A stretch of 64,000 nucleotides of DNA from Dictyostelium discoideum (taxonomy: Eukaryota). The stretch covers positions 1,856,001 through 1,920,000 of the forward strand of contig CM000153.2 of the NCBI GenBank assembly GCA_000004695.1, in the 5' to 3' direction. Positions 45,736 through 50,586 of the stretch are shown one piece after another. A program made the translations under genes and the position numbers. How positions within the stretch are numbered: position 1 is the first letter of the stretch; every line of letters starts with the position of its first letter. The notes below the pieces were generated by a model. That model ran no database searches and was not told where the DNA came from. It saw nothing but the letters and a program-made list of their open reading frames with translations.

Positions 45736-46909
45736 TTATTTATTTATTTTAGTATGTTTTTTAATTATATTAATAATATTATTTATATGAACAATATCAT
45801 CATTGTTTTTATTAAGAGATGAAAGAGAAATTACATTTGGATCAGTATCGTCAATAGAAACTGTTGTGAAGACATTTGACTTTGAGGATTTAACATTCTC
45901 ATATACCATATTGGTAAGAACTGGATGAGGGGAAATTTCAACAAAAATTAGTTTTTTTGCACCATTTAATTCAAACTTTTTAATAATATCATGAGTTATT
46001 GATTCAGCATCAACACAAGATCTAATACTTTCAAAAATATTGAATGGATTTGATTGATCATAGAGTTTACCATTATATGAGCAATAAGTTTGAATGATTG
46101 AATTTGAATTTGAATTTTTGATTTCAACATCTTTAGTTTTATTAGCATAGTCTTTAATACAATCTAATGCTGATGAATGAAAAGGGATTTTCGAAGGTAT
46201 TCTTTTAATGAAAATATTATTTTCTTTAAACTCTTTTTCCAATTGTTCAAATTGTTCTAAATTACAAGTTGCCATTAAAGTTGAAGAATTTGAAAATTTG
46301 GCAGAAACTTCAAGATCTGAGTATTTGTTAGAGTATTTTTCATTGAATTGATCTGCTCCCATTTTTATGAAAAATGGTATACCATTTGGGTTTAAATTAT
46401 AAAATGTGTCCATTAATTTTGCTCTTTCAATAAGTAAATCACATACTGATTTTAATGATAAAATACCAGAACAGTATAAACTTGCCATTTCACCACAACT
46501 AATTATATAAATATATTTAATAATTAATAATTATAATAATAATAAAAATAATAATAATGATTAAAATAATAAAAAACAATTACCTAATACCAAAAATACA
46601 AGATGGTAATATCATTTCACTTTTTAATAGTTCAAACATTGAAACTTGAAACATAAATAAAATTGAATGTGTTAAATATTGGTCTTCATTGTTTTTATCT
46701 TCATTTGTTGATTTTCTTAATTTATTTAACATTGATTCACCATTAAAATAATTTATTTTTAAATAATTATCAATTTTATCCATTGATTCTCTAAAAATTT
46801 TATTTCCTTTATAAAGTTCTAATGCCATTTCACCCCAATGCACTGCTTGACCACAAAAATGAAAAACAATTGGATTTAACTTTGAAAAATCATCAATATT
46901 ACTATTCAT
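45736..46909 (-). CDS. Standalone PKS-type acyltransferase (malonyl-CoA:ACP transacylase-like) paralog 1, 362 aa; exons 46584..46909 and 45736..46498
   Basis: N-terminal VFHFCGQAVHW (cf. FxFPGQGSQ), FRESMDKID, QYLTHSILFMFQVSMFELL, active site across the intron CIFGI|SCGEMASLYCSG (GxSxGE), His motif IPFHSSALD, C-terminal LIFVEISPHPVL. The same phase 2 intron position occurs in all three paralogs. Confidence 0.8.
46584..46909 (-). CDS. paralog 1 exon 1 (detail)
   Basis: Exon-level coordinates for the preceding gene. Donor AG|gtaattg on the minus strand. Confidence 0.7.
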
Positions 46910-47626
46910 ATTATCTATGTATTTAAGTATTTATATGTATATATAAATATGTATGTATATATAATTATATATTTAAATAATTTTAAATAAAAAAAATTAA
47001 TTAATTAAATTAATTTTAAGTTAGTATTTATTGTTTTTTTTTTTTTTATTTTTTTAATTTTTTTTTTTTGGTTTTTTTTTTTTTTTTTTTTGTATATTTA
47101 TCGATATCTTACTTTTTTTATCCACCATCCTTGTAATTTGAGAGCTTTTTTAATTTTCAAAATTTTTTTTGAGTGGTAAAAATATATAAATAGATGTGAG
47201 ATTAATAATATATTTTTTTTTTTATTTTTTTTTAAAAAAATTAATATTTTTATTTTTATTATTATATTTTTATTATTATATTTTAATTTTTTATTTTCAA
47301 ATAATAAAAGTAATAAAAAATAATTTAATTTACAGTTTTTATTTTTGGAGTTGCATTCATTTCACATTGTTTATTTTTATTCATTTGGAAGATAATTAAA
47401 ATTCTTAATCAAGTGAGAAAACAATTTTTTTTTTTTTTTATTTTTTTTTTTTTAAATTAGAATATTACTGATCATCATCCTAACATCATATCATTAAATC
47501 TTTTAGATTATTATTTCATTTATTTTTTATTTATTTTTTATTTATACTTAATTTTTTTAGTGGTGTTTAATTTTTATTTTTTTTTTATTTTATTTTTATT
47601 TTAATTATTGTGTAATCTTATTATTA

Positions 47627-47722
47627 TTATTATTATTATTATTATTATTATTATTATTATTATTATTATTATTATTATTATTATTATTATTATTATTATT
47701 ATTATTATTATTACTATTATTA
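47627..47722. repeat. (ATT)about31 microsatellite, intergenic between AT paralogs 1 and 2
   Basis: Read directly. Confidence 0.9.
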
Positions 47723-47725
47723 AAG

Positions 47726-48903
47726 TTATAAATTTCTTTTTAAAATTTCTAAAATTTCATTAAAATGAATATTGTCATTATTGTTTTTATTTAATGAGGA
47801 AAGTGCTATTACATTTGGATTATTTTCAATATTTGAAGTTGTTGTGAAAATTGTTGATTTAAAAGTTTTTACAATTTCAAACATATAAGGTGAACTAATT
47901 GGATGAGGTGATAATTCAACAAATATGACTTTTTCTTTACCATTTGATTCTAGTGTTCTTAATATATCTTCAATAGCAACTTTAGTACAAAGACAATCTC
48001 TTATACTTCTAAATATGTTGAATGGATTATTTTCATTATAGATTTTACCATTTGATGATGTATAAGTTGGAATTTTGAATGAAAATTCATTAAATTCAAT
48101 ATCCTTTATTTTCAAAGCATCTTCTTTAACACAATCAATAACAGATGTGTGAAATGGGATTTGTGTATTTAATCTTTTAGTTTGAATTCCATTTTCATTT
48201 AACTCTTTAAAAACCTGTTCAAATTGTTCAGAGTTACATGTACCAAATAATGTAAAAGAGTCTGTATGACGACCACCAATTTCAACATCTGGATATTTCT
48301 TTGAATAGTTTTTAATGAAATCATCACATCCAATTGAACCAAAAAATGAAAATCCTTTTGGACACTTTTTCAACACAACATCCAATAACTTTGCTCTGTC
48401 CATTATTAAATCACATGCTGATTTTAATGTTAATGCACCAGAGCAATATAAACTTGCCATTTCTCCACAACTTTTTAATAATAATAATAATAATAATAAT
48501 AATAATAATAATAATAAGAATAATAATAATAATAATTTTTAAATTAGTAAAAATATTAAATATTAAATTATAATAATAATAAAATTAATTACCTAACACC
48601 ATAAATAAAAGATGGATTTACACCTTCGCTTTTATATAATTCAAATAATGAAACTTGAAACATAAATAAAACTGAATGTGTTAAATATTGATCTTTATTT
48701 GGAGATTCATCATCACCAAGTGATCTTAATTTATTTAACATTGATTCACCATCAAAATAATTTATTTTTAAATAATTATCAATTCTATCCATTGATTCTC
48801 TAAAAATTCGATTTCCACTATAAAGTTCTAATGCCATTGTTTTCCAAAGTGTAGCTTGACCACAAAAAATAAAAACAATTGATGAATTATCATAACTATT
48901 CAT
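47726..48903 (-). CDS. Standalone PKS-type acyltransferase paralog 2, 351 aa; exons 48593..48903 and 47726..48470
   Basis: VFIFCGQATLW, FRESMDRID, FIYGV|SCGEMASLYCSGALTLKSACDLIMDRAKLL, IPFHTSVID, VIFVELSPHPIS. The intron contains (ATT)n. Confidence 0.8.
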
Positions 48904-49323
48904 TTTAAATTATTTACAAGGGTATAAAAAATTATTTATAAAAATTAAACACTACAAATGTTTTTTTTTTAAAAAAATAAAAAATAAATTTATTTTGTTT
49001 AAAAAAAAAATGTTTAGTGTGGTGTTTTTTTATTTTTATTTTTATTTTTATTTATTTTTTTTTTTTTTAAAAAATTAATTATTAAAAATTTTAAATCAAA
49101 AAAATTATTTAATCAAAGATTTAAATGATATGTATTTGAACGATACAAAATTGTATTAAAACTAATAAAAAAAAAAAAAAGTAAAAAAAAAAAATTTTTT
49201 GGAGAGCATATATTCCAAGTTATCTGCCTTCCCTATATTCTGTTTTTTCAAATTATTTACCTTTTTTTTTTTTTTTTAAATATTTGATACCTGTTTTTTT
49301 TATTCATTTTAATTTAATTTAAT

Positions 49324-49388
49324 TTTTTTTTTTTTTTTTTTTTTTTTTTTTTTTTTTTTTTTTTTTTTTTTTTTTTTTTTTTTTTTTT
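49324..49388. repeat. T(65) homopolymer between AT paralogs 2 and 3
   Basis: Read directly. One of many runs over 40 nt (also A43 at 143..185, A about 50 at 35860..35930, T45 at 22439..22483). Confidence 0.9.
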
Positions 49389-49433
49389 AATGGATATATT
49401 AAATATTAAATATTACTTATTATTATTAAAATT

Positions 49434-50586
49434 TTAAAAGAGTTTTTTAATTTCTGAAATTGTTTCATTAATTGATATGATATCATTTTTTGATCTTTCA
49501 AGTGTTGGTAAAAAAGTTATATTGTTTTTGTAATTTTCACGCAAAGAATTAAACAATTTTGAATCTATGGTTTTTAATGATTCTTTAATAGTTGGGATCA
49601 TTGTTGGATTTGGTGATATTTCTACTACGATAACATTTGTTCCTCCATTTTCTTCAATAAATTTAAAAATATTATGATGAGTTTTAACATTTTGGACTGT
49701 ATTTCTAAGATTTTTAAAAAGATAATTTTGATCAAATTTTAATGAACTATTATTAAACATTTCACCAGTTACACTCGAGAATAATGGTATTGCTGATGGT
49801 TTTGGTATGAATATCTGTTTTAAAACATCATCTTTTATACAATCCATTGCACTAGTGTGAAATGCAATTTGTGCAGGATAACTTTTTACTTGATATCCTT
49901 GTTTCAATACATCATCATAGAGTCTATCAACTTGTTCTATGTCACCACATCCAACATAAACGTGTTTTGGTGATAATATTGCTGCCATTTCAACATTTGG
50001 ATATTTCTCTGAAAATAGTCTATTGTATTCTTCACAACTAATATCAATTCCAATTAATTTTGCAGGTGCATTTAATGATCTTACCTTTGATGTCATTGAT
50101 GCTCTAAAAAATGAAATATCGCAAGCAGTTTCTAAATCAAGTGTTCCTGAACAATATGCTGCTGATATTTCTCCACAACTATTACGTATAATAGAATAGA
50201 ATAAATAAATAAATAAATAAATATAATTATTATTTTTTTTTACTTTTTTTCTTTTTATAATATGTTTGTTACCTTGTTCCAAAAATTACAGACGGAGATA
50301 TTCCTTCACTTTTTAATAATTCAAAAATTGATACTTGAAACATGAATAAAAATGAATGAACAACAAATTGATCTCTATTTGGGATTGCATCATCTGGCTG
50401 AGTTCTTAATTTGTTTAGCATTGATTCCCCATTAAAATATTTATTTTTAATAAAACAGTCAAGTTTATCCATTGATTCTTTAAAAACTTTATTTCCATTA
50501 TATAGATCAAGTGCTAATGTTTTTGTTTGTAATGCTTGTCCACAAAAACTAAAAAATATAAATGGTTTATTATCATTTTTAATCAT
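49434..50586 (-). CDS. Standalone PKS-type acyltransferase paralog 3, 352 aa; exons 50273..50586 and 49434..50178
   Basis: FIFFSFCGQALQ, FKESMDKLD, VIFGT|SCGEISAAYCSG, IAFHTSAMD, VIVVEISPNPTM. Confidence 0.8.

Follow-up and report, generated by a model that had tools for sequence, protein, structure and literature searches.

Free-standing polyketide synthase-type acyltransferase genes in Dictyostelium and their mosaic active site

The window analyzed here, a 64-kb stretch (64,000 nucleotides) of the Dictyostelium discoideum genome, contains three head-to-tail genes on the minus strand (45736-50586), which we call ATa, ATb, and ATc, and judged from their sequences these encode complete standalone acyltransferase (AT) proteins of the polyketide synthase (PKS) type rather than of the FabD type. 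Their predicted active site is a mosaic that is hydrolase-like at positions 63 and 91 (Escherichia coli FabD numbering) and transferase-like at positions 117 and 200. It is very likely that they are live, PKS-derived enzymes of some kind that act in trans through an acyl-Ser intermediate, and we tentatively favor trans transfer of malonyl from CoA to the acyl carrier protein (ACP) domains of PKSs and fatty acid synthases (FASs) as their role; the substrate, the partner, and the direction of transfer are what we infer from the evidence below. A preliminary description of the locus, made from the letters alone, had pointed out the AT-only triplet. Beyond that description, we find by alignment that the His of the nucleophile elbow is lost, that the equivalent of FabD Gln63 is replaced by His, and that the triplet is one third of a larger family. 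The gene models were already in databases, and we found no publication on these genes.

Three AT-only genes

We rebuilt ATa, ATb, and ATc from the sequence, each as two exons, and the spliced proteins are letter-identical to annotated proteins of D. discoideum strain AX4, for which the databases give the name "hypothetical protein" or "MAT domain-containing protein". The genes, their parts, and the key residues of their products are as follows.

49434..50586, minus strand: ATa, DDB_G0284375 (Q54PR1), 352 aa; splicing and translation give an exact match to the AX4 protein
50587..50609, minus strand: transcribed 5′ leader of ATa, at least 23 nt; the transcript contig starts at 50609
50586..50273, minus strand: ATa exon 1, rebuilt from sequence
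50272..50179, minus strand: ATa intron, 94 nt, GT..AG, phase 2, within the Ser105 codon (AG/T)
50178..49434, minus strand: ATa exon 2, stop included
47726..48903, minus strand: ATb, DDB_G0284453 (Q54PR2), 351 aa; exact match to the AX4 protein
48903..48593, minus strand: ATb exon 1, rebuilt from sequence
48592..48471, minus strand: ATb intron, 122 nt, GT..AG, phase 2; mostly (TAA)n
48470..47726, minus strand: ATb exon 2, rebuilt from sequence
45736..46909, minus strand: ATc, DDB_G0284373 (Q54PR3), 362 aa; exact match to the AX4 protein
46909..46584, minus strand: ATc exon 1, rebuilt from sequence
46583..46499, minus strand: ATc intron, 85 nt, GT..AG, phase 2
46498..45736, minus strand: ATc exon 2, rebuilt from sequence
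ATa key residues: Gln17, His77 (FabD position 63), Thr104-Ser105-Cys106, Arg130, Phe211-His212
ATb nucleophile elbow: Gly102-Val103-Ser104-Cys105
ATc nucleophile elbow: Gly107-Ile108-Ser109-Cys110

The three AT-only genes of 351-362 aa seen in the preliminary description could thus be rebuilt in full, and the motifs it had listed (GQ, GxSxGE, an FHS-type His motif, and VE(I/L)SP(H/N)P) are all present, in the form FCGQ, GxSCGE, (A/P)FH(T/S)S, and VE(I/L)SP(H/N)P in all three proteins. In each gene a phase-2 intron splits the nucleophile Ser codon (AG/T) of G(T/V/I)-S-C-G-E, as had also been noticed. The pairwise protein identities had been put at 45-55% by eye, and when measured they are 40% (ATa and ATb), 40% (ATa and ATc), and 57% (ATb and ATc). 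The GQ motif begins at residue 15-21 in the AT proteins, which leaves no space for an N-terminal targeting peptide or presequence.

The Pfam profile that had been proposed as a check, PF00698 (Acyl_transf_1), matches all three proteins over almost its full length (profile positions 1-2 to 291-305 of 319), with E values of 3.4e-31 for ATa, 1.2e-24 for ATb, and 1.6e-22 for ATc and with scores of 109.4, 87.8, and 80.8 bits, above the gathering cut-off of 32.7. The NCBIfam fabD equivalog model (TIGR00128), by contrast, gives 43.6-54 bits against a cut-off of 260.9, and the best models are those of type I PKSs. Identity is 16% to E. coli FabD versus ~31% to the AT domains that are built into Dictyostelium megasynthases (cis-ATs), and the nearest sequence in the Protein Data Bank (PDB) is the AT of D. 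discoideum Pks16 (phmmer E 5e-30 with ATb). An AlphaFold2 model of ATa (pLDDT 85.9, pTM 0.87) has the two-subdomain AT fold, predicted as an alpha/beta-hydrolase-like core with a ferredoxin-like insert. In Foldseek searches with this model, the top matches are all cis-AT domains, with a TM of 0.85 to the Pks16 AT, and the 50 best matches in the PDB are all AT or AH (acyl hydrolase) structures (E 5e-24 to 7e-21, TMq 0.72-0.85). The model also superposes over its full length, including a C-terminal strand-helix extension, on bacterial cis-AT domains. The starter unit AT domains of fungal nonreducing PKSs use a Cys nucleophile in GxCxG. We considered such a nucleophile here and rejected it, as the nucleophile is Ser and the Cys lies at +1, the position of FabD Leu93.

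When three full-length Dictyostelium PKSs, Pks21 among them, were searched against the 64-kb window with tblastn, only their AT region (residues ~544-887) matched, and it did so only at ATa, ATb, and ATc. No coding for ketosynthase (KS), dehydratase (DH), methyltransferase, enoylreductase, ketoreductase (KR), or ACP domains was found in the window with these three PKSs, which agrees with the earlier impression that KS, DH, KR, and ACP coding is absent. Since the matches are confined to the AT region, the genes are truly AT-only.

Splicing, which the preliminary description had named as a point to check in mRNA, is borne out for ATa, and for ATb and ATc no equivalent transcript contig was found. 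The ATa evidence is a 1034-nt Logan contig, SRR24091725_5497 (L006), in which nucleotides 1-337 correspond to window positions 50609..50273 and nucleotides 336-1013 to 50180..49503 at 99.7-99.9% identity, the end of the contig being Illumina adapter. The two blocks share 2 nt (AG), so the ATa junction was placed by the GT..AG rule. This contig is best read as spliced ATa mRNA from which the 94-nt intron had been removed as predicted.

The genes are also maintained in related species. Syntenic arrays, lying between the exportin-5 side and the Yae1/PAP2 side, are present in D. cf. discoideum with three genes and in D. firmibasis with four, so that orthologous arrays, suggested earlier as something to look for, do exist and differ in copy number between close species. 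The D. firmibasis array (L001 8440..14475) consists of one ATa-type, one ATb-type, and two ATc-type genes, and further orthologs occur in D. citrinum and D. dimigraforme. In each of the seven orthologs examined, the Ser codon is again split by a phase-2 intron. Across at least five species or strains no reading frame is broken, and the starts and stops are conserved. The ratio of nonsynonymous to synonymous substitution (dN/dS), calculated between orthologs by the Nei-Gojobori method, is 0.23-0.36 against D. cf. discoideum and 0.22-0.36 against D. firmibasis, which indicates purifying, though not strong, selection on the coding sequence.

Active-site residues

We aligned the family to E. coli FabD, whose sequence is identical to 1mla, using 26 nonredundant standalone proteins. 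The equivalents of Gln11, Ser92, Arg117, Phe200, and His201 are invariant in all 26, which come from several species and from the three D. discoideum arrays described below. In 25 of the 26, however, position 63 has an invariant His instead of Gln, position 64 has Ser, Ala, or Cys instead of Pro, and the elbow position 91 has Thr, Val, Ile, Ala, Leu, Met, or Cys instead of His, the exception in each case being the protein of D. purpureum. ATa, ATb, and ATc accordingly depart from the AT criterion of GHSxG together with Gln63, in that their elbow reads G(T/V/I)SCG and their residue at position 63 is His.

The altered pair is that of bacterial hydrolases. Among 475 AT domains of multidomain synthases, 435 have Gln63 with His91 and none has His63 with a non-His residue at 91, whereas among 117 PksD-like bacterial AHs the first pair is never found and the second is found in 111 (His63 in 111/117, non-His91 in 117/117, and Gln117 in 114/117). 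A phmmer alignment places PksD His71, Ser98-Ser99, and Gln124 opposite the family's His, Val-Ser, and Arg. In PksD, His71 lies in the acyl pocket, where it forms hydrogen bonds with Gln12 and Gln124, and it is essential, as H71A abolishes hydrolysis (PMC11775670). Arg117 binds the malonyl carboxylate, and its absence has been called "diagnostic of an AH"; the Phe of the xFHS motif gives malonyl specificity (PMC11775670).

The closest relatives of the family by sequence and fold are the Dictyostelium cis-ATs (Pks16/FAS, PDB 9nju; Pks21; D. purpureum DICPUDRAFT_156533), with which it shares Gln11, Ser92, Arg117, Phe200, His201, and a C-terminal extension of a beta-strand and a helix. Unlike these, the standalone proteins are free of a KS, a KS-AT linker, and downstream domains, and they have exchanged Gln63 for His, Pro64 for Ser or Ala, His91 for Thr, Val, or Ile, and Gln121 for a hydrophobic residue. 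The D. purpureum standalone protein, DICPUDRAFT_27499, differs from the array proteins in keeping the ancestral Gln63, His91 (as GHSFGE), and Gln121 and would thus represent the state before the His exchange. Bacterial AHs (PksD, PedC; PDB 8avz) are likewise free-standing AT folds of ~320-350 aa with a C-terminal extension, and they share with the family the His at position 63, a non-His residue before the nucleophile Ser, and Phe200-His201; unlike the AHs, the family keeps Arg117, is only ~19% identical, forms a separate clade, and is eukaryotic and not clustered with PKS genes. With bacterial trans-ATs (PksC, DisD, PedD) and FabD, the family has in common a discrete AT fold, the Ser-His dyad, Arg117, and a malonyl-type xFHS. 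Those enzymes, however, strictly keep GHS and Gln63, both of which have changed in the family.

Two of the 117 PksD-like bacterial proteins have His63, Ala91, and Arg117, which is the same mosaic, so that a bacterial counterpart may exist. A separate observation concerns bacterial megasynthase cis-ATs in which Arg117 is replaced (by Trp, Tyr, Gln, or others): position 63 is then often Trp, Cys, Val, Leu, Phe, or Ile, and these joint changes at 63 and 117 suggest co-variation with the use of carboxylated versus noncarboxylated substrates.

The Phe at Pks16 position 733 is invariant in the 11 Dictyostelium cis-ATs sampled and is lost in ATa and ATb, and the proteins of the triplet in the window have gained Lys or Arg on the strand of Pks16 733/735, which has been identified as contacting the ACP (PMC12828403). 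These substitutions are weak evidence, compatible with an altered and more electrostatic docking of the ACP.

The wider family, its origin, and its surroundings

Profile and word-based searches identified at least nine AT-only genes in D. discoideum, grouped in three triplet arrays. The genes in the window form array 1, and the other two, both in D. discoideum assembly GCA_054859355, are as follows.

L003 8453..13120: array 2, AT-only proteins of 348, 411, and 350 aa
L007 10001..14811: array 3, proteins of 424, 425, and 444 aa with poly-Asn insertions

Two members of array 2 could be matched to AX4 chromosome 2, namely DDB_G0275991 and Q552M0 (XP_643362.1). The latter has 350 aa and an AT domain only, and its NCBI and UniProt name, "beta-ketoacyl synthase family protein", seems to be a mistake of annotation. 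For the third gene of array 3 no Pfam match had been precomputed, yet it fits the family profile at E 1e-113. D. purpureum has a single standalone AT gene, DICPUDRAFT_27499, which encodes 346 aa and contains one intron. A family profile search covered 1.84 billion representatives, and its best 150 matches were mostly bacterial megasynthases with several ATs, whose scores are additive; as these took up most of the 150, weaker standalone relatives beyond the group-4 Dictyostelium species may be missed.

The Ser-codon phase-2 intron is also found in one array-2 gene, P0116, while its two neighbors and the three genes of array 3 lack introns. The intron of DICPUDRAFT_27499 is in phase 0 and lies 18 codons downstream of the Ser-codon site. 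Inheritance of the Ser-codon intron from a pks gene is unsupported, as the AT regions of three of three pks genes (L002) are uninterrupted at GHS(L/I)GE.

We built bootstrapped neighbor-joining trees on Kimura distances, a simple method, with 11 Dictyostelium cis-ATs included. The standalone clade is monophyletic with 88-90% bootstrap support, or 96-100% when D. purpureum is left out, and it is nested within the Dictyostelium cis-ATs (100%), apart from bacterial modular ATs, FabD, and the bacterial AHs, which form a clade of their own at 100%. The phylogeny that had been proposed as a check thus places the family as one group inside the Dictyostelium cis-ATs. DICPUDRAFT_27499 is the earliest branch of the standalone clade. 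These trees would be explained if a PKS AT domain was excised once in a group-4 ancestor and the new gene was then duplicated, both in tandem and to dispersed sites, and a lineage-specific expansion of PKSs in group 4 has been described (PMC3188802). Because the clade is unrelated to the AHs and because the D. purpureum branch retains Gln63 and His91, the AH-like pair would be convergent and would have arisen after the excision. Horizontal transfer from bacterial AHs was considered and rejected, since the family falls inside the Dictyostelium cis-ATs in the tree and D. purpureum has the ancestral residues. We found no prior description of a family of three triplets, of a one-time origin from a PKS AT, of the shared Ser-codon intron, or of a convergent His exchange with the Arg kept.

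The window as a whole is Dictyostelium-type DNA (10-35% G+C, with Asn/AAT repeats), and its other large open reading frames encode exportin-5, a major facilitator superfamily (MFS) transporter, a PAP2 phosphatase, and similar proteins. Other features in and around array 1 are as follows.

47570..47722: (ATT)51 between ATb and ATc
48476..48582: (TAA)35, most of the ATb intron
49323..49388: perfect 66-nt homopolymer between ATa and ATb
51039..51140: (ATT)34, the coding poly-Asn tract of the gene upstream
52581..53198, minus strand: upstream neighbor with a borderline match to DNMT1-RFD (replication-foci domain), E 1e-4, 22.8 bits versus a cut-off of 22
54821..56062, plus strand: upstream neighbor, MFS transporter, E 6e-25; like the DNMT1-RFD reading frame, it has no evident tie to the AT genes
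23566..23638, plus strand: single tRNA-Ile, anticodon AAT (ARAGORN)

Proposed function and its alternatives

Since the dyad, the oxyanion hole, the Arg, and the Phe are intact and under selection, we expect the proteins to work as acyl-Ser enzymes and to take malonyl-type thioesters as substrates. In the scheme that we propose, a copy of the AT of an iterative type I PKS would have become an independent gene once, in a group-4 Dictyostelium ancestor, tandem duplication would then have enlarged the family, and its members would now be cytosolic, free-standing, catalytically competent enzymes. Ser105 (ATa numbering), activated by His212, would attack a malonyl-type thioester while the oxyanion is held by the backbone amides of Gln17 and Cys106; Arg130 would bind the free carboxylate, and Phe211 would exclude alpha-branched units. 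From the malonyl-O-Ser intermediate, the malonyl group would go in trans to the phosphopantetheine arms of ACPs in ~40 PKS and FAS megasynthases, and this loading would supplement or bypass their built-in ATs. The change of Gln63 to His and of His91 to Thr, Val, or Ile may reshape the acyl pocket toward the state of an AH, so that the ping-pong reaction may run preferentially from the ACP or its hydrolytic branch may be enhanced.

Several points weigh against malonyl loading. The domains of Dictyostelium PKSs include an AT, and AT:ACP pairs have been modeled with a consensus interface for 18 (PMC12828403), so a pure malonyl loader looks redundant; bacterial trans-ATs, in contrast, serve AT-less synthases. 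No AT-less partner synthase was found in the window or beside array 2, array 3, or the D. firmibasis array, and no PKS gene of any kind adjoins these or array 1. No AT-less PKS partner is known, and the trans-acting malonyl transferases suggested in the preliminary description are putative. Nine fast-diverging paralogs would seem to exceed the needs of simple malonyl loading, and the His63/non-His91 pair, found in 0/475 cis-ATs and in 111/117 PksD-like hydrolases, would point to hydrolase-like chemistry. No biochemical or genetic work on these genes and no study of their expression came up in literature searches by gene or UniProt identifier and by topic, and the supplement of PMC12828403 does not mention them.

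Part of this evidence is what would be expected if the enzymes unload ACPs instead of loading them, which we regard as the main alternative, possible though doubtful. They could be editing hydrolases that free PKS ACPs of short acyl groups left by mis-priming or decarboxylation, like bacterial AHs and type II thioesterases, or release and transfer enzymes that pass the acyl group from the ACP to water or to CoA, like the malonyl/palmitoyl transferase of fungal FAS, for the ~19 of 40 PKSs without a C-terminal offloading domain. The hydrolase pair at 63 and 91 in 25 of the 26 family members favors unloading, as does the alignment of the family His with PksD His71, whose loss kills hydrolysis (PMC11775670). 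Offloading enzymes are present downstream of the ACP in only 21/40 D. discoideum PKSs (PMC12828403), and the expansion of the family parallels that of the group-4 PKSs (PMC3188802). Mis-priming is plausible because the enzyme DiSfp can, in vitro, charge PKS ACPs with acetyl-, hexanoyl-, and lauroyl-phosphopantetheine (PMC3171403). However, Arg117, whose absence is diagnostic of an AH, is invariant; with the Arg present, malonyl units should be accepted, and their hydrolysis would be wasteful. The family also falls outside the AH clade, and the PksD changes S98H and S98A have little effect (PMC11775670), so that the elbow residue alone may not matter. A further and still more doubtful extension is that the family is a eukaryote-specific new class between AT and AH, in which an AH-like site was rebuilt convergently with the Arg kept, and that its members are the missing factors which, in trans, release the products or edit the ACPs of about half of the 40 PKSs.

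The other explanations are considerably less probable than either loading or unloading. As noncatalytic AT-like proteins, either decoys or regulators, which the preliminary description had offered as an alternative, or scaffolds, they would bind ACPs or malonyl-CoA but catalyze nothing. This would fit the loss of a strictly conserved elbow His and a dN/dS of 0.2-0.36 that is fairly relaxed for an enzyme, but we consider it unlikely, because the active-site Ser, His, Arg, Gln, and Phe do not vary among the 26 members, which span three arrays and at least five species, the G-x-S-x-G-E elbow motif is intact, and the elbow His is also missing from bacterial AHs that are active (PMC11775670). It is very improbable that the genes encode FabD-type malonyl-CoA:ACP transacylases for mitochondrial type II FAS and its stand-alone mitochondrial ACP. 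Such an ACP is present in D. discoideum (PMC3171403), and the UniProt name "MAT domain-containing protein" would suit it, but we rejected this identity because of the low fabD equivalog score and the missing N-terminal presequence; the 16% identity to E. coli FabD and nine lineage-specific, fast-evolving copies are also unlike a housekeeping enzyme. Least credible of all is that the genes are remnants, either exons of a larger PKS gene or decaying PKS pseudogene fragments. PKS fragments do occur in Dictyostelium: at L002 9630..10996 (D. discoideum GCA_054883475), a 116-aa KS piece and a 331-aa KS-linker/AT piece lie between two full-length pks genes. The second piece ends in scrambled sequence, and the two are probably a decaying PKS copy, unlike the intact standalone ATs. 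Around the present genes, full-length PKSs gave only AT matches and the 64-kb window holds no other PKS domain, on which basis the reading as fragments joined by long introns was rejected. Frames, starts, and stops are conserved in at least five species or strains with dN/dS well below 1, as expected for genes under purifying selection, and the spliced mRNA starts 23 nt upstream of the ATa ATG. Two of the outcomes that would have undone the preliminary description, a larger PKS gene and pseudogenes, did not materialize.

The PKS repertoire of Dictyostelium ranks among the largest in eukaryotes, few of its products are known, and about half of the synthases have no known release step. Against this background, at least nine discrete AT-fold enzymes are an obvious and unstudied set of accessory factors, and the family is relevant to how products are released, how ACPs are edited, how extenders are supplied, and how these PKSs are expressed in heterologous hosts. 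It is also a natural experiment on the AT His91, described as "strictly conserved" with no ascribed role, and on the near-invariant Gln63, a pair that changed together, independently of bacteria, once the domain was free-standing; since the D. purpureum member keeps the ancestral state, it can serve directly as the template for reversion mutants. The family is a clean eukaryotic example of a domain leaving a megasynthase and becoming a gene family, and if the enzymes do unload ACPs with the Arg kept, they would constitute a new functional class between AT and AH.

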